Shown piece after piece: positions 8,134 to 24,789 of a stretch of 37,664 nucleotides of DNA (positions within the stretch are counted from its first letter, which is position 1; every line of letters starts with the position of its first letter). This DNA comes from Candidatus Hodarchaeum mangrovi (GTDB taxonomy: Archaea > Asgardarchaeota > Heimdallarchaeia > Hodarchaeales > Hodarchaeaceae), in contig JAEOUE010000212.1 of NCBI GenBank assembly GCA_016839515.1, positions 1-37,664 of the forward strand, in the 5' to 3' direction. The notes beneath the pieces were generated by a model. The model was not told the origin of the DNA, did no database searches, and saw only the letters and a program-made list of their open reading frames with translations. Both the position numbers and the translations under genes were made by a program.

Positions 8134-9168
8134 CTATGTTACTGACCAAGTTTCATCACCATTGATCAGTTCTTGTAGAGATTTTGTAACGGACTTCTTT
8201 GCTTCATCTAATTGTTGTTCCAACATTTCATTATAGGTAGGTTTCTCAATAGCACGAAATATCCCAATCGGTTCTGGGAATGTTGGATATTGCATTCTTG
8301 ATAAAAAGAAAGCAAGAGTAGATTCTCTGGCATTTTCATCATGATATAACAAGTCTGTTTCTTCAAAACCTGCTTCCTTATAATTGATAACTTTGGGAGT
8401 TAATCCATGTAGAAAAATACCTTTCTCACGGTTCTTACCAAATACCATTGGTTTACCATGCTCTAGTTCGAGAATATAGTCATCGCGCATCTCTTTATCT
8501 GTTGCATATCTGAAAGTGCCATCATTAAATATTACACAATTCTGATATATTTCAACAAAAGCTGTTCCTTTATGTTCAGCTGCACGCTGCAGAACTTTTT
8601 GCATATGCATTCCATAAGTAGCTTCTGTTCTTGCAATAAATGATGCTTCAGCCCCTAATGCCCAAGATATTGGATTAACTGGATAATCTATTGATCCTTG
8701 TGGAGAAGATTTTGTTCGAATCCCTTGTTTTGATGTCGGAGAATATTGACCTTTAGTCAAGCCATAGATTTGGTTGTTAAACAAAATTATCTTTATATCA
8801 ACATTCCTTCTAATTGCATGCATGAGATGGTTTCCTCCAATACTCAAGCCATCACCATCACCAGTAATAACCCAAACTGAAAGTTCAGGTCGACTACATT
8901 TAAGACCTGTTGCAATCGTAGGGGCTCTTCCGTGAATTGTATGCATTCCGTATGTATTTAAGTAGTAAGGAAACCTAGAACTGCACCCAATTCCACTAAT
9001 GAAAACAATATTTTCCCTAGGGATGCCTAAAGACGGAAAAATCTTTTTCATATTAGCCAATATTGCATAATTTCCACATCCAGGACACCATCGTACGTCT
9101 AAACCTGAATCAAAGTCCTTTGGAGTAAGTATTGGTAATACATCTTGTGGTTTGTCTGTATCACTCAT
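8134..9168 (-). CDS. korB: 2-oxoacid:ferredoxin oxidoreductase beta subunit
   Basis: WCPGCG, SGIGCSSR, HGRA, TPP-binding GDGDG...NN.IYGLTKGQYSPTS. Confidence 0.96.
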   Translation of the reverse strand: MSDTDKPQDVLPILTPKDFDSGLDVRWCPGCGNYAILANMKKIFPSLGIPRENIVFISGIGCSSRFPYYLNTYGMHTIHGRAPTIATGLKCSRPELSVWVITGDGDGLSIGGNHLMHAIRRNVDIKIILFNNQIYGLTKGQYSPTSKQGIRTKSSPQGSIDYPVNPISWALGAEASFIARTEATYGMHMQKVLQRAAEHKGTAFVEIYQNCVIFNDGTFRYATDKEMRDDYILELEHGKPMVFGKNREKGIFLHGLTPKVINYKEAGFEETDLLYHDENARESTLAFFLSRMQYPTFPEPIGIFRAIEKPTYNEMLEQQLDEAKKSVTKSLQELINGDETWSVT

Positions 9169-11063
9169 TATAAATCACCATTAAGAATACTATCAATTTT
9201 CTCAATAATTTCTTTTACAAGAAACGGTCTTCCCTGGGTTTTATTAAGGCCGATAGTTTCTATTGAATATTTTGCTTGAATTAAAAATTTAAGCTGCCCT
9301 CTATTCAGTTCGGGAATTAAAATCTTCTTGTAAGATTGTACAATCTCTTCTAAATTCTGTGGAAAAGGATTTATATATCTCAAATTTGTATTCGCTACAG
9401 AATATCCTTGCTGTCTCATTTTTTCCGCTGCAATTTGCACTGCACCATTAGTTGAACCCCAACTAAGTACAAGTAAATCGCCTTCTGCTGGTCCTTCTAT
9501 ATTTTGCCTTGGTATATCTTCTGCAATTTTTTCTATCTTTTCTGATCTTAACTTAACCATTAGCTCATGATTTTCAGGATCATAACTTACATTTCCTGTT
9601 TTGTCTTCTTTCTCTAAACCACCAATGCGATGTTCTAATCCTTTTATTCCTGGAATTGCCCAAGGTCGTGCTAAGTTTTCATTTCTGATATAAGGAAGAA
9701 AGTGATCAGCTATGTCAAACGATTCTTTTGTTGGGTGATCAATCTTTAGGCTAGGAATTTGGTTAATATCAGGGATTTTCCATGGATCAATATTGTTTGC
9801 CATATAACCATCAGATAACAATAATACAGGAGTCATGAATTTTGTAGCTATTCGAATAGCTTCAATTGCCATATAAAAACAGTCTCCAGATGACTGTGGT
9901 GCAAGAACTGGTAAAGGAGATTCACCATTTCTTCCATATATCCCTTGTAATAAGTCTGATTGTTCTGTTTTTGTTGGCATCCCTGTACTTGGTCCAGCAC
10001 GTTGGACATTAACGACTATAATAGGTAGTTCTGTTATTACTGCCAATCCTAAGGCTTCGCTCATAAGGGCAAAACCTGGTCCTGATGTTCCTGTTACACC
10101 AATAACCCCTCCGAAAGCTGCTCCTATTATTGAACCAATCGCAGCTATTTCATCTTCAGCTTGAAATGTTCGGATTCCATATCCATGATAGCGAACTAAA
10201 TCATGGAGAAGATCACTAGCCGGGGTTATTGGATATGCGCCATAAAAAACTTCCTTTTTTACAATCTGAGCAGCTGTTACAAAGCCTAGCGCAAGAGCTT
10301 GATTTCCAGAAATGTATCTATATAACCCTGGTTCCATTTTAGCCTTTGGTACTTGATATTGAACAGAAAAAAGTTCAGTAGTTTCTCCGTAATAGTATCC
10401 TGCTTTTAATGCTAGAGTATTTGCTTCAATGATGGCAGGTCGTTTGTTAAATTTATCTTGAATCCATTCTATTGTTGATTCTAAAGGTCTGTTATAAAGC
10501 CATGATAATAATCCTAAAGTATAGAAATTTCGTGTTAGATTGATTTGCTTATTGGTTAGGCCCTCTACTTTATGAACTGCTTCGTAATTCAATTTAGTTA
10601 TATCTAAACTAAATACCCGATATTTGTCAAGAGATTGATCTTTCAAGGGATTTAAAGAGTAACCAGCTTTAGATAAGTTTTTAGGTGTAAATGTAGACTC
10701 ATCTATAATTATAATGCCATTTGGTTTTAAATCTTTTATGTTTACTCGTAAAGCAGCTGGATTCATCGCTATTAAAGCGTCTAAATCATCACCAGGAGTA
10801 GAAATTTTAGTTGAAGAAAAATGAATCTGAAATCCAGACACACCTGCAAGCGTACCTGTAGGAGCACGAATCTCTGCAGGAAACTCTGGGAAAGTAGAGA
10901 CATCATTTCCAAAAATAACTGATGCCGAAGTAAATTTTAGGCCTGCTAACTGCATCCCATCTCCACTATCTCCAGTAAAACGAATAACAGCTTGAGGTAA
11001 TGTTTCAGTCGATTTTGAAGTGGTAGATTCACGTTCTTCATGAGTTTCTTGGATTTCTTCCAT
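9168..11063 (-). CDS. korA: 2-oxoacid:ferredoxin oxidoreductase alpha subunit (gamma-alpha fusion)
   Basis: GDSGDGMQLAG, FPAEIRAP, YPITPAS, QAEDEIAA and QRAGPSTGMPTKTEQ. Its stop overlaps the korB start by 1 nt (TAATG). Confidence 0.96.
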   Translation of the reverse strand: MEEIQETHEERESTTSKSTETLPQAVIRFTGDSGDGMQLAGLKFTSASVIFGNDVSTFPEFPAEIRAPTGTLAGVSGFQIHFSSTKISTPGDDLDALIAMNPAALRVNIKDLKPNGIIIIDESTFTPKNLSKAGYSLNPLKDQSLDKYRVFSLDITKLNYEAVHKVEGLTNKQINLTRNFYTLGLLSWLYNRPLESTIEWIQDKFNKRPAIIEANTLALKAGYYYGETTELFSVQYQVPKAKMEPGLYRYISGNQALALGFVTAAQIVKKEVFYGAYPITPASDLLHDLVRYHGYGIRTFQAEDEIAAIGSIIGAAFGGVIGVTGTSGPGFALMSEALGLAVITELPIIVVNVQRAGPSTGMPTKTEQSDLLQGIYGRNGESPLPVLAPQSSGDCFYMAIEAIRIATKFMTPVLLLSDGYMANNIDPWKIPDINQIPSLKIDHPTKESFDIADHFLPYIRNENLARPWAIPGIKGLEHRIGGLEKEDKTGNVSYDPENHELMVKLRSEKIEKIAEDIPRQNIEGPAEGDLLVLSWGSTNGAVQIAAEKMRQQGYSVANTNLRYINPFPQNLEEIVQSYKKILIPELNRGQLKFLIQAKYSIETIGLNKTQGRPFLVKEIIEKIDSILNGDL

Positions 11064-11122: not shown

Positions 11123-11599
11123 TCAAGCTCCCTCTCTTTGATCTTGAGGTGGTTGAGATGGCGAAATCGTATATACTGATTCAGCAATATACTCAACTAG
11201 ATAAGAAATGAAATCACGTGCGGAAACAATTCCTATCAGTTTTCCTTCTTCTACAATTGCTAAGTGCTTAAATGTAGTTTTATATAACGTTAATACAATT
11301 TCAGCAATAGACTCACGGCATTCTATTGTTTTGAAATTTGTTTTCATAATTGATTTCGCAGAATCATCTTCAGTAAATTTATTTTCTCCAAAACAGCGAA
11401 GAATATCTCTTTCAGTTATTATTCCTAATAAATTTTTATCATTATCTAATATAGCCACATAACCAGTCCATTGAGACTGTAAGGCTATAATTGCATCACG
11501 AATTGTCGCATCTTCAGATATTGAATTAATTTCTCTTCGAATTAAACGTTTACAGTCTTCTTTTCTAAAAATAGAAATCAGATAATCTTCTTTCGTCAT
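11123..11599 (-). CDS. Tandem CBS domain protein
   Basis: LLGIITERDIL, FKHLAIVEEGKLIGIVSARDF. It lies 59 bp upstream of korA on the same strand. Confidence 0.92.
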   Translation of the reverse strand: MTKEDYLISIFRKEDCKRLIRREINSISEDATIRDAIIALQSQWTGYVAILDNDKNLLGIITERDILRCFGENKFTEDDSAKSIMKTNFKTIECRESIAEIVLTLYKTTFKHLAIVEEGKLIGIVSARDFISYLVEYIAESVYTISPSQPPQDQREGA

Positions 11600-12082
11600 T
11601 TTATTCCCAAGCTTAATAGTTTTCCTTTTATGCTTTAATGAGTCTCTTTATATGCTTTCAAATAGTTTATTGTTTCTATTCTTTTTTTATTGAATAAGAT
11701 TGATTTATAATTAACTATTGCTTTATCTTTGGCTAAATCTGGATGGATTTGTCAATCATATTATTAATAATGATTCATCTTCTTTTTAATTAAACAAAAT
11801 CTAGGTTTGTGACCTTGAAATAATGGATAAGAGATAAATTGGTTTCAGGGCAGTAATATGATTAGTATTATCATTTTGGAATAGTATTTTAATTCTTGAA
11901 AAGCCTTTTTTTACGAAAATTTTAGGTAAGAGATATAAAGAGCTTAAAATCTGCATAAAGCTTTGATTAGGTCTTTCTCGAGAAATTTTCATTAAGTGTT
12001 AATGACTATTCTCAAGGAAAAAGAAATGAAACCAAAATTTTTTATTTAAGTTAGAATTATATTTTTTAAGGTGGAAAATCGA

Positions 12083-13549
12083 ATGGTAACTCGGACTAAA
12101 ATTGTTTGTACCATCGGCCCTGCTTCTGAGAAAATTACGGTATTAAAAAAGCTTGTTGACGCTGGAATGGATGTTTGTCGACTTAATTTTTCTCATGGTG
12201 CTCATCCTGATCATTTGGAGAGATACGAAAGGATAAGAGCAGTTTCAGAAGATTTAGCGGTTTTAATTGATTTATGTGGACCAAAAATACGAACAGGTGA
12301 AGTAGTTGAGGGAACGATACTAGAGGCAGGACAGAAACTTCGGATTTCAAAGGTAATAGGATTAGAAGGGAATTCTGAAGTTATATCCACGAATTATCCA
12401 CCATTAATTGATGATGCCAAGGTAGGAAATCATCTTGCAATTGATGATGGTTTACTGCAACTTGTGGTTACTAAAAAAACTGAAAATGAACTTATCTGTA
12501 AAGTTGAATATGGTGGAGAGTTAAAGTCTCGGAAAGGGATAAATGCTCCAGATGTTCCACTTTCATTGTATTTTCCAACTCAGAAAGATTATGATGATAT
12601 TAGTTTTGTATGCAGAAAGTTTGAAGACCCTGCTGATTATATTGCCGCATCATTTGTTCGAAGAAAAGAAGATATTCTTGCAATTAAGGAAAAATTAACG
12701 GAATATAACTCACCAATAAAAATTATTAGCAAAATAGAAAATAGAGACGGAATAAAAAATTTTGATGAGATTTTGAAAGTTTCTGATGGGATCATGGTCG
12801 CTAGAGGTGATCTTGGAATTGAAATTCCTTCAGAACAAGTACCACTAGTTCAAAAACAATTAATCCGTAAGTGCAACTCTTTAGGTAAACCTGTCATTGT
12901 AGCGACTCAGATGTTGGATTCCATGACATATAATCCCCGTCCCACTAGAGCTGAAGTATCTGATGTCTCAAATGCTATAATTGACGGTGCTGATGCTGTC
13001 ATGCTTTCTGGTGAAACTGCTGTTGGGAAATATCCTGTTGAGACTGTTAATTTCATGGAACGAATCTTAAAAGAAATAAACATAAATCATCAACTTTTCA
13101 AAGGTCGGACAGTTGAATGGACTGGTGATGAACCTTCAGGTGCAGAGGTTCTCGGTCGTGCTGCCCACTTAATCAGTGACGCTAGTTCATTAGATATAAG
13201 TGCAATAGTGACCAGTACGCGAACAGGTTCGACTACAAATCTTATAGCTAAATGTAGACCTTCTAAGCCAATTATTGCAGGAACCCCCTATAAAAGCATT
13301 AAACGTCAATTGAATTTAATCTGGGGAGTTTATCCAATATTAGTCGATGTCACACCCTCTTATAACGAATTATTATATGAAATTGTGTTAAAAGCCCATG
13401 AACAGGAATTACTTAACCCTAAAGACACAATATTAGCAGTTGGAGGATCATTATTAGGATTTCCCTCAAAAACTAATCAAATTCAAATTTTAAAAGTTGA
13501 AGATGTTCTATTATTTGGCCAACAACTAAAACGTACCATTTTAGAATAA
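12083..13549 (+). CDS. pyk: Pyruvate kinase
   Basis: RTKIVCTIGPAS, RLNFSHG, DGIMVARGDLG, ATQMLDSM..NPRPTRAE, MLSGETA. ATG at 12083 follows an AGGTGG SD (the track start GTG 12071 lies within that SD). Confidence 0.97.
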   Translation: MVTRTKIVCTIGPASEKITVLKKLVDAGMDVCRLNFSHGAHPDHLERYERIRAVSEDLAVLIDLCGPKIRTGEVVEGTILEAGQKLRISKVIGLEGNSEVISTNYPPLIDDAKVGNHLAIDDGLLQLVVTKKTENELICKVEYGGELKSRKGINAPDVPLSLYFPTQKDYDDISFVCRKFEDPADYIAASFVRRKEDILAIKEKLTEYNSPIKIISKIENRDGIKNFDEILKVSDGIMVARGDLGIEIPSEQVPLVQKQLIRKCNSLGKPVIVATQMLDSMTYNPRPTRAEVSDVSNAIIDGADAVMLSGETAVGKYPVETVNFMERILKEININHQLFKGRTVEWTGDEPSGAEVLGRAAHLISDASSLDISAIVTSTRTGSTTNLIAKCRPSKPIIAGTPYKSIKRQLNLIWGVYPILVDVTPSYNELLYEIVLKAHEQELLNPKDTILAVGGSLLGFPSKTNQIQILKVEDVLLFGQQLKRTILE

Positions 13550-13871: not shown

Positions 13872-16112
13872 ATGATAATCGCAACTATAGCAGATGGTTA
13901 TCACGAAGATTATGCTAAATCAGTGGGACGAATCGCTGAGAAGTATATTACTGATTTGGGTCTTAATATTGATGAAATTGTCGAAATAATTAATGGTGAT
14001 AAAAGATTAGGTATAATATTAAGGCCAAAGGAAGAAATCATCGAAAATAGCCGATCTAAATCTAAGTTTCCACATACAGAAAGAAGACACCCAAAAGACA
14101 AAAATGAAGTAATCCTTCATCTTAATGGATTTTTAAGAGCACATTTGAATATTGGTATCGGACAAAAGGTTAGAATTGACAAATTAACATGTCCAGAAGC
14201 AGAGAAAGTTATTATTTCTCCTTCTTCAGTTGAGGATAAACCAAAAATCTACATTGATTTCTTAATGAATCGTCCTGTAGTTCGGGGCCAGATATTAGAG
14301 CTTCAAAATAAATTGGGTTATGATTTACGAGTGGGAATCCTCTCAACTACCCCACCTGGTATTGTATTCATTGGTGAGAATACTGATGTTCGAATCACCC
14401 ATGAACCAGCAAGAGAACTAATCGAAGATTCGGATATAATCACTTGGGATGATATCGGGGGTACAAAGGAAGCATTAGCTCGATTGAGAACTTTAGTTGA
14501 GTATCCTTTACGTTATCCTGAAGTTTTTCAGATGTTGGACATAGATACACCTCATGGAATCCTTCTCACAGGTCCTCCTGGAATAGGAAAAACCTACCTT
14601 AGTAAAGCGATTGCGTGTGAATCAGGGGTAACAAGATTTTTTGTTATGGCTCCTGAGTACGTAAAGGGGTGGTGGAATACAGAACAAGAAATTGAAAAGT
14701 ATTTCAAACATATTAAGAACTATGAACCAGCTGTTTTAATTATTGATCAAATAGAAGTACTTGCTCCTTATCCTGGATCAAATATTTCTGATTTAGAGAA
14801 AAGGTTAACAGATCAGCTAATAAAGAGCTTTGATAAGCATATTACTAATAGTAAAATTATTGTTATCGGTACAACACAAAATGCAAGCAATTTAAATCCT
14901 TCGCTACGGGTTTATGGTCGATTTGATGTTGAATTAAATCTACAAGTCCCTAATGCTACTGATAGATACGAAATTTTATCAATTCAAACGAGAGGGATTC
15001 CTTTAAGAGACGTTTCTCTTCATGAAATTGCTGAAACGACTGGAGGATTCACTCCCGCTGATTTAGAATTATTAGTTAAAGAAGCAGGAATGAGAGCCCT
15101 CGAACGTGAGAACCTTCTCAACCTTGATTTTGAAACCCAAATAGATGATTTAGTAAGAACAAGTTATCCCAAAATTGAGATTTCTCAAGATGATTTCTTA
15201 ATCGCGCTTTCCTCTATTAAACCATCTGCGAGTCGTGAAATCACATTTCAAATTCCTGATGTGAGATGGGACGATATTGGGGGGCTTGAGGAGGTCAAAC
15301 AATCTCTAAAGGAAATGATTGAATGGCCTATTAAATATCCAGAAATTTTTACGCAGATGGGGATTCGTTCTCCAAGAGGTGTGTTATTATATGGCCCCCC
15401 AGGTACTGGGAAAACTCTTCTGGCTAAAGCTTTAGCTAATGAAATTCAAGCTAATTTTATCGTTGTAAAAGGGCCTGAGCTTCTATCAAAATGGTTTTCT
15501 GAAAGTGCTAGACTAATTCGTGACCTTTTCAAGCGAGCTAGGCAACTGGCACCTTGTATAGTGTTTTTTGATGAAATTGATGCCATAGCTACCCATCGGG
15601 GAGGAAGTTTCCCAAGTGAAGGATCCCGAGAGAGGGATAGAATCATAAATCAATTACTTGCTTCACTTGATGGAGTTGAAAAATTAAATGGAGTCTTTGT
15701 TGTAAGTGCAACAAATCGACCAGATACAATAGATCCAGCCCTTCTTCGTCCTGGAAGGCTGGATCGTTTAATATATGTCCCTGTTCCTGATGATATTGGT
15801 CGTTTAAAAATCTTAGAAGTCCATACTCGACGAATGAATCTCGAAAAAAATGTAGATCTTAATGCCTTAGCGTTTAAGACCGAAAATTACACAGGTGCAG
15901 ATATAGAGAATCTTTGTCGTGAGGCAGCTTTTGCAGCACTTCGAAAAAACCCATCCATTCGTTCTGTATCTATGATGGATTTTGAAGAAGCTTTAGACAT
16001 CTGTAGACCAAGTGTTAACCGTGATGTTATTGATTATTATCGAGTACAGGAAGAATTGATGAAGAAAAAACGAACAATAGAATATTCTTATTTTAAGGAG
16101 GAGTTTGGGTAA
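13872..16112 (+). CDS. Cdc48/p97-family type II AAA+ ATPase, paralogue A (degenerate D1)
   Basis: N-domain, then D1 (GPPGIGKT; Walker B LIIDQ), then D2 (GPPGTGKT; VFFDEID; ATNRPD; LLRPGRLD). Confidence 0.95.
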   Translation: MIIATIADGYHEDYAKSVGRIAEKYITDLGLNIDEIVEIINGDKRLGIILRPKEEIIENSRSKSKFPHTERRHPKDKNEVILHLNGFLRAHLNIGIGQKVRIDKLTCPEAEKVIISPSSVEDKPKIYIDFLMNRPVVRGQILELQNKLGYDLRVGILSTTPPGIVFIGENTDVRITHEPARELIEDSDIITWDDIGGTKEALARLRTLVEYPLRYPEVFQMLDIDTPHGILLTGPPGIGKTYLSKAIACESGVTRFFVMAPEYVKGWWNTEQEIEKYFKHIKNYEPAVLIIDQIEVLAPYPGSNISDLEKRLTDQLIKSFDKHITNSKIIVIGTTQNASNLNPSLRVYGRFDVELNLQVPNATDRYEILSIQTRGIPLRDVSLHEIAETTGGFTPADLELLVKEAGMRALERENLLNLDFETQIDDLVRTSYPKIEISQDDFLIALSSIKPSASREITFQIPDVRWDDIGGLEEVKQSLKEMIEWPIKYPEIFTQMGIRSPRGVLLYGPPGTGKTLLAKALANEIQANFIVVKGPELLSKWFSESARLIRDLFKRARQLAPCIVFFDEIDAIATHRGGSFPSEGSRERDRIINQLLASLDGVEKLNGVFVVSATNRPDTIDPALLRPGRLDRLIYVPVPDDIGRLKILEVHTRRMNLEKNVDLNALAFKTENYTGADIENLCREAAFAALRKNPSIRSVSMMDFEEALDICRPSVNRDVIDYYRVQEELMKKKRTIEYSYFKEEFG

Positions 16113-18464
16113 ATGGTTGTTTGTGAGTTATATGAACCTCTGAAAAGTGATTACGGGAAACGAATTATCAAACTTCCCAATGAAGTATTCAAATTATTAG
16201 GAATAGAAGAATTCGATATCGTGGAAGTAATTTCTGGATCTAAAAGGATTGGGGTTCATGCTCTTATTGATCATACACTAGTAAAAACGTCAAAAGAATT
16301 TCTGAATGGAATATCTCAGCCTGTACCGAAGAAAGATGACAAATCCCAAGAAAAAGACTTACCTACACCAAAGGGATTACCATTTCAAGGTTATGAGATA
16401 GATAGAAGTGACCTATATCCAGCTCGTTTAGATGGTGAAGTAAGATTATCACTAAACCTTGGTTTAAATGACCTAATTGAGGTCGATACGATTCTTACAC
16501 CTATTAAAGCAAAAAGGGTCTATTTTAGTGTGCTAGGAAGAGCTCCAAATGAATTGACAGACGAAGAGAAAGAACTTTTATTTAAAGAATTAAGTAAACA
16601 GAAAAAAATTGGTCCATTATCTCCTGGCCTTGTACTTGGTATTCAAATTGCATTTAAAGAGGAAAAAGTCTTAATTCAAGCTACCGAGCCAGATGGAATT
16701 GTCTCAGTTACATCAAAGACTGAATATGAATTACTTGACACTTTTCTCTCTTCAAGATCAATGAAAACTGAAAAAATTAGTTATGAAAATATTGGAGGTC
16801 ATGAAGAAGTTATTTTTCGCATTCGTAAGCTTGTAGAGATTCCAATTAAAAAACCCGAGGTATTTTCATCAATAAATCTTGTTCCTCCTTCAGGGATACT
16901 TCTCACTGGACCTACAGGGGTTGGAAAGACTTTATTGCTTAAAGCAGTTGCTAATGAGTCTAGAGCTAAAATCATTGAGCCTCCATCAAATTTATTTGCT
17001 GGTGTAGGACCTACAGAAAAGAATATAAGAGATTTATTCAAAAATGTCAAAATTGAGTCACAAAAAAATCCTATACTTTTAATATTAGATAACATTCATT
17101 CTATGATTCCTGCTCCTTATATTAATATCCCTGAATATGTCCGTCGCTTTAATGTTCAATTTGCATTAGGTTTGGATTCGTTAAAGGGTTCACGCGTTAT
17201 TGTTTTGGCAGCATGTCATAGTGCGGATGAAGTGGATCCAATCATGCGAAGACCAGGACGATTTGATCTTGAAGTAGAATTAACAGTCCCAACAATAAGA
17301 GAGCGATTTATTATTTTATCGATTCATCTTCGACATGTACCGTTAGACAAAAAAGTGACTTCTGAAGTTCTAGAAAGATTTGCTAATAGAATGGTGGGTT
17401 ACGTTGGAGCTGATATAGCATCCTTCGTAAAGGAAGCTTGTTTACATGCTGTAAGTAGGAATACATCTCTGTTCAGTGAATGGTCAACAATTCCTCCTTT
17501 CCTCCTACGTCTGATTAAAGTGAATATAGGAGATTTGGAAGAAGCATTTAAAGTAGTAGAACCATCAGCACTTCGTTCTATCCATTCAAAAATAGATATT
17601 CCTAATGTTAAATGGGAAGATGTTGGTGGATTAACCGAAATTAAAAAAATACTCCAAGAACAGATTACATTGCAATTTAGGAATCCTGAAATATTACAAG
17701 AAATGGGTATAAAACCTTCTCATGGGCTTTTATTTTATGGCCCACCTGGTAATGGAAAAACACTGCTGGCAAAAGCTATTGCAACTGAATTACAAGCAAA
17801 TTTTATTTCTGTGAAAGGTCCAGAGTTATTAAGCGTTTGGTTTGGGGAATCAGCTAAAATAATTCGTGAATTATTTAATCAGGCACAAAAGCTTTCCCCT
17901 TGTATTATCTTTTTTGATGAAATAGATGCTATGGTTCCTAGAAGAGGAGTTGATAGTACTGAAGGTGGAAGAGAAATTGATGCAACTGTAAATCAATTAT
18001 TGACATTATTAGATGGCATGGAAAATACACAGGGTATATTCGTAATGGGGGCTACAAATCGTCCCAATGCACTCGATCCTGCACTTCTCCGACCTGGGAG
18101 ACTTGATCGCTTAATCCTCGTTCCATCTCCAGACGAAATTAGTCGAGAAGAAATATTAAAAGTTCATACTAGAAATATTCCTATTAAAGCTGATAAAGTT
18201 AAACTATTACAAGAAATGGCAAACTTAACGGAGAATTATAGTGGAGCTGATCTAGAAAACCTTTGTCGCGAAGCTGTGCTTACTTGTTTAAGAGAAGATT
18301 TTAATCAAAGAGAAGTTCAATATATCCATTTTGAAACTGCACTTAAAAAAGTTAGTCCTAGTGTAGATCCTGAATTACAACAATTCTATAAGAATTTTGC
18401 TACTGAAATAAATATTCAAAGAAATTTATTGTCGTCTATTCGAAAAGAATTAACTTATCAGTAG
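16113..18464 (+). CDS. Cdc48/p97-family type II AAA+ ATPase, paralogue B (degenerate D1)
   Basis: N-domain, then D1 (GPTGVGKT; Walker B LILDN), then D2 (GPPGNGKT; IFFDEID; ATNRPN; LLRPGRLD). ATG comes immediately after the TAA of paralogue A, with a GGAGG SD inside the 3' end of A. Confidence 0.95.
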
Positions 18465-18487
18465 AGTGAAGGTAAAAAGAAGGGTAA

Positions 18488-19153
18488 TTAAAGGGTTTTT
18501 ACCCATTTATAGACAGGTTCACAGAGCAATTTGATTCGTTCTTTTTCTTCTGTCATTGGCCCAGAGGTCCATGATGAATCAGGTTCAAACCAAAAGTCAA
18601 TTAAATTGCCAACGCGATCTTCTTTAGAAGCAAATTTAATAATTACAGGCATATTAGTCTCAGTATGCCATGGTTCTTTAATATGAAGGATGTTGGCAAT
18701 GGCTGTTTTACTATCTCCTACAAGAACATAAGCTAATACAAAAGGAAGTTTTTTCAATGCACTCTTAGCAGCAAATCCGCACACAGTCCAAGCATGCAAT
18801 TTCCCTTTTTTAGGCATTTCAACCCAAGTAGTTTTTTCTAAATTACAATCAAGATTCCAACAATTTACTCTTGGAGGAAAAGTTATGTCACCACAGATAG
18901 GACATTTAGTACCAAGTAATTTTCCTTCTAAAAGTCCAATAGCATATGGACTTAAAGTGCCTAATCTGAATGTATAGAGCATATCATAGTAAATCTGTTG
19001 TTCCATCCATTGTGCTCCTCCCGCTTTTCCTGTTCTAATGTTTTGCCAAACCCAACCTTTTTCAGGAATCTCTTTTTGAATATTTTTCCATGCATTCCAT
19101 TGAAATTCTTTATTGAATGGAGTAGGATGTAAATCACCTGATGTTTTTTTCAT
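18488..19153 (-). CDS. DUF35-type Zn-ribbon/OB-fold protein (thiolase partner)
   Basis: GKLLGTKCPICG.ITFPPRVNC, then GKLHAWT and PFVLAYV. The ATG at 19153 follows a GGAGG SD, 1 nt past the thiolase stop, so it is preferred over the track start at 19216. Confidence 0.9.
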   Translation of the reverse strand: MKKTSGDLHPTPFNKEFQWNAWKNIQKEIPEKGWVWQNIRTGKAGGAQWMEQQIYYDMLYTFRLGTLSPYAIGLLEGKLLGTKCPICGDITFPPRVNCWNLDCNLEKTTWVEMPKKGKLHAWTVCGFAAKSALKKLPFVLAYVLVGDSKTAIANILHIKEPWHTETNMPVIIKFASKEDRVGNLIDFWFEPDSSWTSGPMTEEKERIKLLCEPVYKWVKTL

Positions 19154-19154
19154 C

Positions 19155-20426
19155 TTAAACCCTCCTAAAAACGAAGTTACTAATACTTGTACCAGTCCCC
19201 GCATGACTATTGACAAGTCCTATTTCTGCATCCACTACCTCATTTTCAGTTGATTTGTGTTCTCTTGGAATAAAACCAGCAAGTTGATAATAACATTCAA
19301 TAGCAGACATTAAACCTGTTGCTCCAACAGGGTGACCATATCCTATTAAACCACCACCTGGATTTGTGGGTATTTTACCCTCCATCATTGGCATATTATT
19401 ACGCAGAAACTCTTTTGGAGTCATACTCTGACACCATCCTAATGCATTATAAATCTGAACTTCAGAGGTTGAGAAAGCATCATGTACTTCCGCGACATCA
19501 ATGTGTTTATATGAATCTTTCCAAGGGATACCTGCCATATCGAAAGCAATTTCAGCAGAGCGCCTACAAGCACCAAATTCTCCCAATCCTGGATATCCCT
19601 CTCCATAACGTTGAGTCCATCCGGGAAAATTATATCGATCTCCTGCGCGTATAGTACATGAAGATAATCCTGCTCCTACTATTTCAACTGTGTGGTCTGG
19701 AGCATAACGATTGGCAAATTTTTCATTGCATACTAGAATTACTGCTGCACCTTCTGACATAAAACAACAATCAAGTTTTTTTAGAGGATAAGCAATGAGG
19801 CGTGAATTCATTATATCATCAATGGTCATTTTTCGACCAACTTGTCGAAAATGCTGAGTTTTTTCACCAGTAGCCATAGCATTATTTTTATTTTTAGCAG
19901 CAACCTTGGCAAAGTCTTCTTCAGTTAATTTATGGTCTTCCATAAATACTCTTGCTAAACCTGCATAATAATTGGTATAATTAGCTCCAAGCATTGCCTC
20001 ATATCGTGTATCTGAGGCGATAGCAATAAGTTCAGATCCCTTAGACTGAGAGACACTAGCCATTAATTCATATCCAATAACAGGAACTACATCAGCTAAT
20101 CCTGCTCGAACCAAGGCATAAGCAGCATATAAAGCTGATCCACCTGTATTTCCACCATTGTCAATACGAAAATGGGGAACTCCAACAAGTCCCAAGTGAT
20201 CATGTAAAATCCAATAGGCTGTTAATTGATGGCTAAAATGAACTGAAAAATGTGAATAGACGACCATTCCATGATCTCGTACATCTCTGAGGTGAAATTC
20301 ATAGTTTGTATCTTTGTATAGTTGACGGATACAGTTTGCTGTCATTTCCTCAATCTGTAAATTAAGAGGATAATCAAATGGAGTTGTTGTTCCTCCAGCA
20401 ATGAATACTTTTTGCTGTTCTGGCAT
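19155..20426 (-). CDS. Thiolase-superfamily protein (SCP2-thiolase-like) lacking the catalytic cysteines
   Basis: VAAKNKNNA, PLKKLDCC..SEGAAVIL, AEVHDAFS..E, NPGGGLIGYGHPVGATG. The usual NACAS motif reads NGGNT. Confidence 0.9.
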   Translation of the reverse strand: MPEQQKVFIAGGTTTPFDYPLNLQIEEMTANCIRQLYKDTNYEFHLRDVRDHGMVVYSHFSVHFSHQLTAYWILHDHLGLVGVPHFRIDNGGNTGGSALYAAYALVRAGLADVVPVIGYELMASVSQSKGSELIAIASDTRYEAMLGANYTNYYAGLARVFMEDHKLTEEDFAKVAAKNKNNAMATGEKTQHFRQVGRKMTIDDIMNSRLIAYPLKKLDCCFMSEGAAVILVCNEKFANRYAPDHTVEIVGAGLSSCTIRAGDRYNFPGWTQRYGEGYPGLGEFGACRRSAEIAFDMAGIPWKDSYKHIDVAEVHDAFSTSEVQIYNALGWCQSMTPKEFLRNNMPMMEGKIPTNPGGGLIGYGHPVGATGLMSAIECYYQLAGFIPREHKSTENEVVDAEIGLVNSHAGTGTSISNFVFRRV

Positions 20427-20746
20427 ATTAATTCCCAATTGATTTTTTTTATCTTAATTACTTGTGTATCTATAACAATTATAGATTTAGGGGTAAAAAT
20501 ACAAAATAGAACCTAGATAATCGGTCTATTCTTTATGAATAAAACCCGATATACACTTGAACATCATCTGATAATCCTTTTAAATTCACCCATAATACCA
20601 ACAAGATACTATAAATCCTCGTGTAATTTCACAAATACTTCAAATCTGTAAAATTATCTTGTACAGATCAAATCTATGCAAGAGGATTTTAGATTTCTAA
20701 AAAAGATAAAAGGCTTTTGAAAAGAATTTCTTTTCTATTACCTTAA

Positions 20747-22302: not shown

Positions 22303-23235
22303 TTGGATACTAAAAAATTTTTAAAGGCACATTTAGATTTATTTCGTTATACGCTAGGAATTTTAAGTTCGCTTGCAGTTCTTGCAGCAGGTTTTATAGT
22401 ATATGTACTTAATGGTGCTACACCAGATTTTTTGACATTTATCTTTAATAATGGTGTAATTGAGATTTCAGGATTAATTCTTGGGTTAATTGCCACTATT
22501 CTATTGACATTTGCAATTGAATCGATAAATGACTACTTTGATGTTAATACGGATATTGCAAACAAGCGGTTTGACCGTCCTTTAGCACGTGGTGATTTAA
22601 ATCGACAATATGTCTTATTTTTTTCTAGTATTTTATTCTTGATTTCATTGTTTTTAATTGCATTTTTGGTGTTATATTATAATGTTACACCCTTTCTGTT
22701 CTTATTTACCTGCTTTTGTGTTTTTATTGGAATTGGATATAATTATATAAAAACGACAGGCTTTATTGGGAACATCTGGGTCTCGATTGGATATGTTGCG
22801 CCTCTTTTTATTGGATTTTTTTTATTAAAGCCAAATGAAGAAGTATCCTTGTATACTTGTTTAATAATCATACTCACTAGCTTTTTCTTAGCTACAGGAC
22901 GTGAAATTGTTAAGGACATTCAAGATTATGAGGGTGATCGTCAATCTAATCTTAATTCATTAGCTGTAAGAATTGGTCCTCGCAAAGCAGGAGTTATAGC
23001 AAGCTTTCTTTTTGTATTAGTCTTCCTCTGTGGATTTTTGGTCGGATTTTTTGTTTATAAAAATATTATTTTTTGGTTATTTTGGTTATGTATTATGTTA
23101 ATCCTTGGTTTGACCATTTATACAATTATGACTGAAGAACCAGCTATCGGTGGGAAAAAAACGCGTAAATATACACGATGGAGTTTATGGTGGTCATTAG
23201 CAGCGTTTTTTTTAGGAGTTATGTTTATTCCTTGA
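22303..23235 (+). CDS. UbiA-family prenyltransferase, digeranylgeranylglyceryl-phosphate synthase-like
   Basis: NDYFD..TD..N...RPL.RG and REIVKDIQDYEGD aspartate-rich motifs, with multiple TM helices. Confidence 0.88.
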   Translation: MDTKKFLKAHLDLFRYTLGILSSLAVLAAGFIVYVLNGATPDFLTFIFNNGVIEISGLILGLIATILLTFAIESINDYFDVNTDIANKRFDRPLARGDLNRQYVLFFSSILFLISLFLIAFLVLYYNVTPFLFLFTCFCVFIGIGYNYIKTTGFIGNIWVSIGYVAPLFIGFFLLKPNEEVSLYTCLIIILTSFFLATGREIVKDIQDYEGDRQSNLNSLAVRIGPRKAGVIASFLFVLVFLCGFLVGFFVYKNIIFWLFWLCIMLILGLTIYTIMTEEPAIGGKKTRKYTRWSLWWSLAAFFLGVMFIP

Positions 23236-23397: not shown

Positions 23398-24789
23398 ATG
23401 CAATATGGAGTTATTATATTGATGGATAAAGATCAAGCAGTTAATTCTAAAATCACTATTAGGGATATATTATATCCTTTTGCAATTTTATTATTAATGC
23501 TCTCTATTTTCGATTTAAGTGCTAATCTAGCTAATTCAGGGATTTTACTTGCATTAATTCAGGGGATAATTGTTATCTCTACTGAGGATGATATTACCAT
23601 TCTTAACCTTGTATTAAACATTATTGCTCAAATTGGGGCCACAGCTATCTTCTTATTTCTTTATAGAAGTCAAAAAATAGAAGTAGAAGAGAAGAAGGCG
23701 ATTCCTGCCCCCTATTTAGCGTTAATTCCAATTCTCTTCTCAATGCTTGAAGCTATTAGTTTTGTCTTGGTAATTCTTTTAACACCTTTTGGACCTGTTA
23801 TCAGTGCTTATGAGGATATTTTACCATCTCCTACCCTTTTATATAATCCATTATATTATTTTCTCCTCTTTGGAGCATTATGTGTTGGAGCTGCAATAAG
23901 CGAAGAGTTAATCTTTCGTCGTAGTTTAATTCCGATGCTAGAAAGGAGAGGAATAGGGAGTTTTTGGGCATTACTAATTTCTAGTTTATTTTTTTCAATC
24001 ATTCATATGCCTGCTGACATTATTCAAGGTACATTAATCTGGACTTTAATGCACTTTGCAGGAACGTTTATTGGTGGTTTAGCTATGGGATATATATATC
24101 TACGTACTCGTCAAATTCGCTGGCCTATCCTTTTACATGCTTTTATCAATGGGATCGGGGGAATATCGGCCATTGCCCAAGGATTTTATGAATACTATCA
24201 AGAATTTTATTTATTGAGTATTGTTACTATTTGGAGTATAATAGCTTTAACCATTGGTTTTGCAGCATTAAGTTATTCTTTCATCCAGTTTATACAACGA
24301 CGGGTTGATCAAAATCCCCCTGAATGGATCAAAATTGTTACGGATACAGGAATTCAGTTTAATAAGTTCAAAATCTTCTTTGGAATTTCATTCATATTCC
24401 TCTTATTGGAAGCAATTTTACCGGTAGTATTAAATCAGGTTTTTGAGTTTATCGAAAGTACTATCACTGTTTCGCAAGAATACCTCCTTTTAAAAACAAT
24501 TATTATATCTCTTTATCATATAATTATAGTAATATTACTTTTCTATCTTGTTTATAGGCAGCTAAGTCCTTTAAAGGAAGCTAATTGGGTGGAAAAAAAG
24601 TATCCTGAGTACTATAGCTTGGATAAATCCATTGTTACTACTATTGAAAGGATGCAAAATTTCTGTGGGGAATGTGGAAAAAATATTATTCCTAACACCT
24701 CTTATTGTGTTTATTGTGGGACGAGACTTATTCAAGAAAATAAAGAGGACACCAAGGATGGAGATAAGATGCAGGATACTCTCTCGTAA
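23398..24789 (+). CDS. CPBP (Rce1/Abi-like) intramembrane glutamic protease with C-terminal zinc ribbon
   Basis: EELIFRR, FFSIIH and ILLHAFIN motifs, plus C-terminal FCGECG...YCVYCG. The start may be ATG 23422. Confidence 0.9.
   Translation: MQYGVIILMDKDQAVNSKITIRDILYPFAILLLMLSIFDLSANLANSGILLALIQGIIVISTEDDITILNLVLNIIAQIGATAIFLFLYRSQKIEVEEKKAIPAPYLALIPILFSMLEAISFVLVILLTPFGPVISAYEDILPSPTLLYNPLYYFLLFGALCVGAAISEELIFRRSLIPMLERRGIGSFWALLISSLFFSIIHMPADIIQGTLIWTLMHFAGTFIGGLAMGYIYLRTRQIRWPILLHAFINGIGGISAIAQGFYEYYQEFYLLSIVTIWSIIALTIGFAALSYSFIQFIQRRVDQNPPEWIKIVTDTGIQFNKFKIFFGISFIFLLLEAILPVVLNQVFEFIESTITVSQEYLLLKTIIISLYHIIIVILLFYLVYRQLSPLKEANWVEKKYPEYYSLDKSIVTTIERMQNFCGECGKNIIPNTSYCVYCGTRLIQENKEDTKDGDKMQDTLS

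Follow-up and report, generated by a model that had tools for sequence, protein, structure and literature searches.

Here we report a coupled pair of Cdc48/VAT-family ATPase genes, which we call A and B, from the Asgard archaeon Candidatus Hodarchaeum mangrovi (order Hodarchaeales), located on a contig of 37,664 nucleotides (JAEOUE010000212.1), the whole of which is hereafter termed the window. The two genes constitute an operon of sister Cdc48/VAT paralogues that are probably co-translated. Their origin is a tandem duplication within Hodarchaeales (Heimdallarchaeia), and among the sampled genomes they are found in only one genus. In both products the first AAA domain (D1) is predicted to bind nucleotide without hydrolyzing ATP, and the second (D2) retains the motifs of a canonical motor. 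Because B is translated behind A on the same message and the genes are retained or lost as a pair, we propose that A and B co-assemble into a mixed double-ring hexamer, which would be a convergent analogue of the eukaryotic Pex1/Pex6 ATPase and not its ancestor; we put the chances of this at about even. Solved archaeal Cdc48/VAT proteins are homohexamers with full catalytic motifs in both rings; mixed rings of type-II AAA proteins in which D1 is inert, Pex1/Pex6 for example, are to our knowledge confined to eukaryotes to date.

A and B are the only long open reading frames (ORFs) at 13872-18464, and their coordinates, domains and motifs are collected in Table 1. The original prediction, made from the letters of the DNA, had described two full-length ATPases, each with an N-terminal (N) domain followed by D1 and D2, that abut with zero gap, and had placed the Shine-Dalgarno (SD) sequence of B inside A; its coordinates and junction proved exact. 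The junction reads GGG TAA followed directly by ATG GTT, with zero spacer and a common reading frame, and a purine-rich run (AAGGAGGAG) lies within the last codons of A, 8 nt 5' of the B ATG. Two contigs from separate studies bridge this junction: one from the X2 run (6360 nt) covers 14099-18500 with 7 differing letters and one from the X7 run (658 nt) covers 15938-16595 with 2, and none of these differences falls at 16110-16115. The two proteins are 38% identical overall, with values of 21% in the N domain, 36% in D1 and 54% in D2; this range, together with the reciprocal monophyly of A and B in the trees described below, bears out the earlier statement that they diverge outside D2 and are not a recent duplication.

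Both proteins display the CDC48 architecture of an N domain and two lidded AAA modules, with two PF00004 AAA domains and two PF17862 (AAA_lid_3) lids each. The TIGR01243 (CDC48) model scores A at 696.7 bits over residues 6-732 and B at 577.2 bits over residues 105-766, which leaves both under its curated cut-off of 802.65 bits for full-length family members. A check for separate canonical cdc48 genes had been proposed along with the pair, and three are indeed encoded elsewhere in the host genome (4.0 Mb in 348 contigs, 91% complete), with TIGR01243 scores of 1060, 1035 and 1004 bits, all above the cut-off. The host had also been taken, rightly, for a probable Asgard archaeon, and the orthologous protein clusters carry the name Candidatus Hodarchaeales (NCBI). 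Each of the two proteins has a single N domain. That of A is recognized by PF02933 (CDC48_2; 31.4 bits against a cut-off of 22.4) and partially by PF02359, at 22.4 bits and under that family's own cut-off, and that of B only by a partial PF02359 match of 19 bits, again under the cut-off. An AlphaFold2 model of the B N domain (mean pLDDT, the per-residue model confidence, 69.3; folded blocks about 74-86) recovered p97 N domains in a Foldseek search (E 1e-10, probability 1.00, TM-score 0.36-0.47); the corresponding model of A, with a mean pLDDT of 47.5, was too poor to search with. Within the insert of the B N domain the residues L83, P84, P86, G88, F91 and G93 are invariant in all seven aligned B N domains, with the preceding 30 or so columns unconserved, and this LPxPxGxxFxG segment looks like a candidate short linear binding motif.

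A catalytic D1 combines the Walker B acidic pair DE, the sensor-1 asparagine and two arginines in the second region of homology (SRH). At these positions A has DQ, Q and R/V, and B has DN, H and R/L; the two Walker B changes had been placed at 14745-14750 (GATCAA, coding for DQ) in A and 17088-17093 (GATAAC, coding for DN) in B, precisely where they lie. We aligned 25 A-type and 18 B-type sequence clusters with 14 canonical Cdc48 rows and two rows of a related single-gene paralogue, the f5 type, and found this pattern to be a property of both families. The D1 P-loops of A and B both fit the Walker A pattern G..G.GK[ST], and the Walker A lysine of D1 is present in all aligned rows, including 25/25 A-type and 18/18 B-type clusters. 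The D1 Walker B pair in the A type is DQ in 22 clusters and DH, DN and DE in one each, so that 24 of the 25 have a residue other than glutamate; in the B type it is DN in 11, EN in four and NN, DD and DK in one each (non-glutamate in 18/18), and in the canonical rows it is DE throughout (14/14). The sensor-1 asparagine of D1 is seen in none of the A-type clusters, in 3/18 of the B type and in 14/14 canonical rows. Likewise, the glycine of the DG[FLM] inter-subunit-signalling (ISS) motif is gone from 25/25 A-type and 17/18 B-type clusters, with the canonical rows reading MDG in 14 of 14. The first SRH arginine is retained in 24/25 A-type and 18/18 B-type clusters and the second is absent from all 25 and all 18; all 14 canonical rows have both. 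The single A-type cluster with DE in D1 is a deep one, P0138 (likely partner P0163), which has this pair yet no sensor-1 asparagine or second arginine; it may represent an intermediate or a reversion.

D2 presents the opposite picture, in that the Walker B DE, the sensor-1 asparagine and the first arginine are found in all 43 A-type and B-type rows. In the window, A and B alike have a D2 Walker A, FFDEID, ATNRP, RPGRLDR and a WF pore loop. The full set of canonical D2 motifs is retained in 25/25 A-type clusters; the B type retains them in 18/18, but its second arginine is R in nine clusters, K in eight and Q in one. A degenerate D1 together with an intact canonical D2 in both proteins, as first read off the window, is thus conserved over the 25 A-type and 18 B-type clusters, and from these motifs D1 of both families is predicted to bind nucleotide without hydrolyzing ATP. 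The D1 domains of A and B are only 36-40% identical to that of the host's canonical Cdc48, as against 70% between two canonical paralogues; this low identity, combined with the conservation of new motifs, fits a release from the catalytic constraint and its replacement by family-specific constraints. The pore loops illustrate the latter: in D1 the pore loop is [GD]-W-W in 25/25 A-type clusters, G-[VI]-G in 18/18 B-type clusters and aromatic-Y-G in canonical Cdc48, and in D2 it is KWF in 25/25 of the A type and [VM]WF in 17/18 of the B type. The W-F pore loop of D2 is that of p97. Such family-specific conserved motifs indicate that the A and B families are each under their own purifying selection, and the differences between them, in the D1 pore loop, the D2 pore loop and the C-terminus, appear partly complementary.

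The distribution of the pair was traced with the N-D1 portion of A in 400 Asgard genomes from 85 genera, with the four best first-look candidates scored in each genome. Close matches (52-59% identity) were recovered in seven of the 400 genomes, all belonging to the host genus (g1; 7 of its 22 genomes), and none among the best four candidates of each of the 378 Asgard genomes outside it. The N-D1 portion of B matched six of the 22 genomes of the genus; in the seventh genome with the pair, G015, the first 202 residues of B stand directly after A and are followed by a 100-N scaffold gap; the remnant shares 85% identity with the N domain of cluster P0003. A truncated gene B with only its N domain left, which would have made G015 a case of A surviving without B, was considered and ruled out, as the break is exactly 100 N. 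The sequence concerned (G015:C1; L026 3266-3365, 100 N) is listed as a single contig and is a gapped scaffold, so that apparent truncations in it are not to be taken for biology. B follows A on the same strand in all seven A-bearing genomes, with a spacing of 0 nt in G000, G032 and G033, 3 nt in G010 and 17 nt in G001 and G016, and a 1-nt overlap in G015; an SD-like purine run precedes the B ATG at all seven junctions, by about 8-12 nt as read by eye rather than computed. No genome with one gene alone was found among those searched with both A and B. The synteny comparison that had been suggested for Asgard genomes accordingly reveals a tightly coupled, conserved unit, present as such in 7/7 A-bearing genomes.

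In four of the seven genomes A and B share a reading frame (16110-16115 in the window; L024 6236-6244; L029 and L030, around 6000), which gives an open frame of 1530-1559 residues interrupted by the A stop; this arrangement is probably due to chance and shared descent. It nevertheless raises the alternative that the stop is read through, at least in part, to yield a polypeptide of about 1530 residues with four AAA domains, as only a stop and a spacer of 0 or 3 nt separate the in-frame genes in G000, G010, G032 and G033. We consider this highly improbable. All orthologues have the stop, as do the X2 and X7 contigs that bridge the junction, and in three genomes the two genes lie in different frames (the 17-nt spacers of G001 and G016 and the 1-nt overlap of G015), both of which make a read-through fusion unlikely; moreover, the B start is always an ATG of its own after an SD-like run, and, as the genomes share descent, four in-frame cases out of seven depart little from the chance expectation of one in three.

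Beyond these genomes, searches of 5.8 billion public proteins, in which the 8000 candidates with the most words in common were scored, recovered at least 25 clusters of the A type with 44-66% identity to the N-D1 portion of A, followed by a drop to 33%, and at least 17 clusters of the B type before a drop to 32-39%, with three further deep ones found through a second query. For ten further A/B cluster pairs, among them the deep pairs P0145/P0161 and P0138/P0163, the longest contigs of the two members are equally long, from which we infer their co-location; this suggests that A and B are adjacent throughout the family, deep branches included. Pairwise divergences within A and within B correlate with r = 0.98 (66 comparisons among 12 A/B pairs), as linked genes of shared descent would. 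A metagenome scan with a generic P-loop pattern had only canonical Cdc48 among the matches listed, at no more than 48% identity over the best segment. Within the genus, 15 of the 22 species yielded no match to the pair, among them G007, G009, G011 and G014, which are 95-99% complete, and hence the pair is accessory. A tree of AspRS, used as a proxy for the species tree, has 19 rows and four of its 16 inner branches starred, and on it the presence or absence of the pair needs three changes, at least two of them forced. Absent from it are G003, for which no ORF was picked, G016, which matched only in part, and G012, which had no match, and its G032 row is a wrong ORF with a branch of about 10; this weak and poorly resolved tree, on which we do not rely, hints that an ancestral pair was lost more than once.

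Phylogenetic trees were built from archaeal rows only, both at full length and for D2 by itself. The full-length trees (46 and 56 rows) recover A and B each as a monophyletic group (support 100) and the two as sisters of each other, with support of 97 and 99 in the Shimodaira-Hasegawa-like approximate likelihood ratio test (SH-aLRT). As both full-length trees bore a long-branch warning, a D2-only tree was computed under the site-heterogeneous LG+C20+F+G4 model; it recovers A+B at 100/98, A at 98/93 and B at 100/99. A grouping of A and B through long-branch attraction was rejected, given that this tree keeps the 100/98 support and bears no such warning. The sister of A+B is the single-gene f5 paralogue (SH-aLRT 100 in both full-length trees; 96/87 in the D2 tree), and the next clade out in the full-length trees is the canonical cdc48_2 of the host's own order (85 and 82).

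The f5 type, looked for among the three or four top first-look candidates of each genome, was found only in one neighboring family of Heimdallarchaeia, in five genomes at 48% identity or more, and in none of them does a tandem partner stand beside it. All five of its rows have either DN or DD as the D1 Walker B pair. In the rows from G027 and G023 the second SRH arginine is V, the ISS motif reads IDQ with its glycine gone, and D2 is canonical. In these respects it resembles A and B; it differs from them in being a single gene, in retaining the D1 sensor-1 asparagine (2/2 rows) and in having a long insert, which lies in the second half of its N domain. Since the single-gene sister is already degenerate in D1, its position suggests that inactivation of D1 preceded the A/B duplication and took place in what was then still a homohexamer. 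The most economical scenario would be one in which a canonical Cdc48 paralogue loses D1 catalysis as a homohexamer, this D1-dead paralogue duplicates in tandem in Hodarchaeales, and the copies diverge into A and B.

The sequence relationships of the pair lie with VAT and p97. In searches of solved chains VAT scores best (639 bits with A, 551 with B), p97/Cdc48 come next (about 528 and 487), and lower ranks are taken by AFG2A (479 and 455), yeast Afg2, NVL, AFG2B (393 and 344) and Rix7. Searches with D1 of A or of B gave nearly the same ranking, both aligning to the D1 of VAT and p97. No Pex1 or Pex6 chain occurs among the best 60 solved chains with full-length A or B or with either D1. The relationship to eukaryotic proteins was judged in this way, by score ranking together with distribution, and not from a joint phylogeny. 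A and B share with VAT and p97, their top sequence relatives, the N-D1-D2 architecture and the canonical D2 motifs, and the N domain of B, as modeled, has the p97 N fold. They differ from VAT and p97 in lacking the catalytic glutamate, sensor-1 asparagine, ISS glycine and second SRH arginine of D1, in scoring under the TIGR01243 cut-off, and in forming a fixed, coupled pair, in contrast to the homohexameric rings of solved VAT and p97.

In Pex1/Pex6, according to the accessible part of the source (PMC9265785), D1 keeps the Walker A lysine and lacks Walker B, the arginine fingers and aromatic pore loops, D2 is the motor with aromatic pore loops, and each subunit has two N domains (N1 and N2); Table 1 of that paper gives the Walker B pair of Pex1 D1 as DN or DD. 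Judged against this account, A and B are likewise two divergent type-II AAA paralogues with a D1 bereft of hydrolysis motifs and D2 as the sole ring predicted to be active, and the DN or DD of B-type D1 recalls Pex1. The likeness is functional and partial: unlike Pex1/Pex6, as there described, the first D1 arginine is kept in 24/25 A-type and 18/18 B-type clusters, the W-W pore loop of D1 is kept in 25/25 of the A type, and each protein has one N domain instead of two. Furthermore, A and B are mutual sisters with no specific sequence relationship to Pex1 or Pex6, and the hetero-hexamer, which is demonstrated for Pex1/Pex6, is in their case our proposal. AFG2A/AFG2B (SPATA5/SPATA5L1) also represent two paralogues of the Cdc48 clade present in the same solved entries (8rhn, 9lgo), and so offer a further example of Cdc48-like paralogues within a single assembly, though both score lower with A and B than VAT or p97 do.

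The original prediction had allowed that the pair might be a forerunner of these eukaryotic machines. Hodarchaeales have been proposed as the nearest archaeal relatives of eukaryotes, and a host from this order lends the idea some appeal, as do the D1 substitutions DN or DD that the B type has in common with Pex1 in the accessible Table 1 of PMC9265785. Nonetheless, an orthologue-level forerunner of a eukaryotic hetero-oligomeric type-II AAA protein, whether Pex1/Pex6 or AFG2A/AFG2B, seems to us scarcely credible. A and B are sisters (100/98 in D2) nested within archaeal Cdc48 beside the host's own paralogue, they were found in seven of 400 Asgard genomes and a single genus, the solved-chain ranking runs from VAT through p97, AFG2A, Afg2, NVL and AFG2B to Rix7 with Pex1/Pex6 outside the best 60, and they have one N domain per protein as opposed to the two described for Pex1 and Pex6 in the accessible text of PMC9265785. 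The mutual sisterhood, the one-genus range and the place of Pex1/Pex6 outside the best 60 leave the forerunner reading unsupported. What stands of the earlier proposal of a hetero-oligomer resembling Pex1/Pex6 is a coupled and conserved pair with a dead D1 and a live D2, for which a hetero-oligomer is plausible; the ancestral part of it is not supported.

As to how the two proteins assemble, the mixed ring is favored by the coupling kept in every genome with the pair and by the conserved complementary features of A and B. In such a ring D1 would bind ATP without turnover and serve as a static ring for assembly, the sole motor that threads and unfolds substrate proteins would be D2, which carries the W-F pore loops, and the two divergent N domains would select substrates or adaptors; these roles for D1 and D2 are taken from the established functions of the respective motifs in AAA+ proteins. 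We hold more tentatively, at somewhat under an even chance, the specific version in which A/B is an obligate hetero-hexamer that evolved independently from a duplicated D1-dead homohexamer and has an ATP-locked D1 scaffold. In that obligate ring the A subunits alone would supply the aromatic residues of the D1 pore loop, and the two kinds of N domain, that of B with its LPxPxGxxFxG peptide on a flexible loop, would recruit different partners.

The principal alternative is that A and B form two separate homohexamers, A6 and B6, in each of which D1 would be inert and D2 active. Labor would be split between the two by the N domains and C-terminal tails, and the coupling would merely secure their co-expression. 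This is a serious possibility, which we rate rather below an even chance. In solved entries of VAT and p97 a single sequence accounts for 6 or 12 chains, and N domains that are 21% identical, with an invariant loop motif specific to B, would fit distinct client sets. Two further observations favor separate homohexamers and at the same time weigh against a mixed ring: each protein has, in addition to all the motifs of a self-sufficient D2 motor, a D1 P-loop and the first arginine finger, so that neither is visibly dependent on the other; and the D1-degenerate f5 sister is a lone gene with no partner alongside, which suggests that a D1-dead Cdc48 can work alone. The mixed ring also has to contend with the fact that tandem paralogues fit co-expressed homohexamers with different N-domain specificities equally well. 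The correlation of r = 0.98 mirrors shared descent, adjacent genes being co-retained or co-lost whatever their function, and the pair is dispensable within the genus. The loss of hydrolysis in D1 is itself deduced from motifs, with one A cluster (P0138) keeping DE, and the C-termini of A and B lie outside the HbYX pattern as given in the accessible part of PMC3493965. A complex prediction for residues 1-455 of A with 1-490 of B, which used family alignments and had no controls, gave ipSAE interface scores of 0.13 and 0.14 against a mark of 0.32 and counts neither way; even scores over the mark would have fitted mixed and single-type rings alike. On the other hand, paralogues that derive from a homomer and are made from one message tend to cross-assemble unless their interfaces are insulated, and no insulation is seen here. 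Separate homohexamers also sit poorly with the adjacency and spacers of at most 17 nt in 7/7 genomes, to which the ten co-located cluster pairs can probably be added, and with the fact that no genome was found with only one of the genes.

The C-termini bear on where unfolded substrates might go. The host genome has three genes for 20S proteasome subunits, a possible outlet for an unfoldase. The last two residues are F-G in A and Y-Q in B. In the two families the penultimate position holds F in 23/25 A-type and Y in 15/18 B-type clusters, and an aromatic residue in 25/25 and 17/18 of them, respectively; the partial cluster P0015 seems to account for the one B-type exception. The third-last residue, read from the termini, is E in the A protein of the window and most A clusters, and T or S in most B clusters. 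The hydrophobic-tyrosine-X (HbYX) pattern for archaeal proteasomal ATPases is [LVIMGAPFYW][FY]x in the accessible part of Forouzan et al. 2012 (PMC3493965). Measured by this pattern, both proteins have the penultimate Phe/Tyr and neither has the small or hydrophobic third-last residue. E-F-x in A and T/S-Y-x in B thus lie outside it as there defined, which makes proteasome docking uncertain, and docking of A and B to the 20S proteasome is at present a possible function.

In the accessible parts of the literature on Asgard, Hodarchaeales or archaeal Cdc48/Pex1-like machines, supplementary files aside and screened largely by title, no description of the pair was found. A paper on Hodarchaeales SNAREs speculates, in its accessible text, on a Cdc48-like disassembly ATPase, and the accessible part of PMC11188069 does not mention the A/B pair. 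Were the mixed ring to be true, it would be the first archaeal hetero-oligomeric Cdc48 and would amount to a replay, in the archaeal kin of eukaryotes, of the homo-to-hetero transition behind Pex1/Pex6, AFG2A/B and Rpt1-6; two separate homohexamers would represent ordinary paralogue specialization. The pair offers a small, expressible system for studying how a homomeric ring ATPase turns heteromeric. It bears on the order of D1 inactivation and the transition to a heteromer, where D1 loss seems to have come earlier here, and on the purpose of an ATP-bound inert ring.

Table 1. Coordinates of the A/B pair, its domains and motifs in the window, and of the related f5-type genes
Feature	Position	Strand	Description and basis
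Gene A (A type)	13872..16112	+	Cdc48/VAT-family N-D1-D2 ATPase, 746 aa; ORF
A N domain, residues 1-189	13872..14438	+	Divergent Cdc48 N domain; variable insert at about residues 55-80 (alignment)
A D1 AAA domain	14439..15236	+	Predicted to bind nucleotide and not to hydrolyze ATP (motifs); Walker A 14571-14594; WW pore loop 14670-14675; Walker B VLIIDQ 14733-14750; Q at sensor-1 position (14871-14885 region); GRFD 14916-14927 with first SRH Arg, second is V
A D2 AAA domain	15237..16061	+	Canonical motor ring (motifs); Walker A 15393-15416; KWF pore loop (WFSE 15492-15503); Walker B IVFFDE 15558-15575; SATNRP 15705-15722; GRLD 15753-15764
Coupling junction	16096..16115	+	SD-like AAGGAGGAG 16096-16104; A stop TAA 16110-16112; B ATG 16113-16115
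Gene B (B type)	16113..18464	+	Cdc48/VAT-family N-D1-D2 ATPase, 783 aa; ORF
B N domain, residues 1-221	16113..16775	+	Cdc48/p97-type N fold with insert of about 40 residues (AlphaFold2 model and Foldseek)
B N-domain insert, residues 58-97	16284..16403	+	pLDDT <50; probably disordered
L-P-x-P-x-G-x-x-F-x-G motif, B residues 83-93	16359-16391	+	End of B N-domain insert
B D1 AAA domain	16776..17582	+	Predicted to bind nucleotide and not to hydrolyze ATP; no aromatic pore loop (G-V-G at this position); Walker A 16908-16931; Walker B LLILDN 17076-17093; H at sensor-1 position (ACHSA 17211-17225); GRFD 17256-17267 with first SRH Arg, second is L
B D2 AAA domain	17583..18410	+	Canonical motor ring (motifs); Walker A 17739-17762; VWF pore loop (WFGE 17838-17849); Walker B IIFFDE 17904-17921; ATNRP 18051-18065; GRLD 18096-18107
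f5-type Cdc48 paralogue	L027 1206-3572; L028 3419-5788; L134-L136		Genomes G027, G023, G083, G084, G081

None of the genes neighboring the A/B pair points to a substrate. Upstream of A lies a pyruvate kinase gene (12071-13549, + strand), which, judging from the N-termini of the ORFs, has the same place ahead of A in G010, G015 and G033 at least, and further upstream a 2-oxoacid:ferredoxin oxidoreductase pair (POR/POR_N/PFOR_II; TPP_enzyme_C) and a CBS-domain protein (8134-11063 and 11123-11599, both on the - strand). An ORF of 242 residues with no Pfam match at E 1e-5 and a thiolase-like gene (18488-19216 and 19155-20438, both on the - strand) are convergent with B at its 3' end; since the two overlap by roughly 60 nt in the ORF calls, the downstream one probably starts later than listed. 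A similar thiolase-like pair stands beside A/B in G001 and G032, again by ORF N-termini. Farther downstream a UbiA-family prenyltransferase gene (22303-23235, + strand) is followed by one for a 463-residue protein with an Rce1-like CAAX prenyl endopeptidase domain (23398-24789, + strand).

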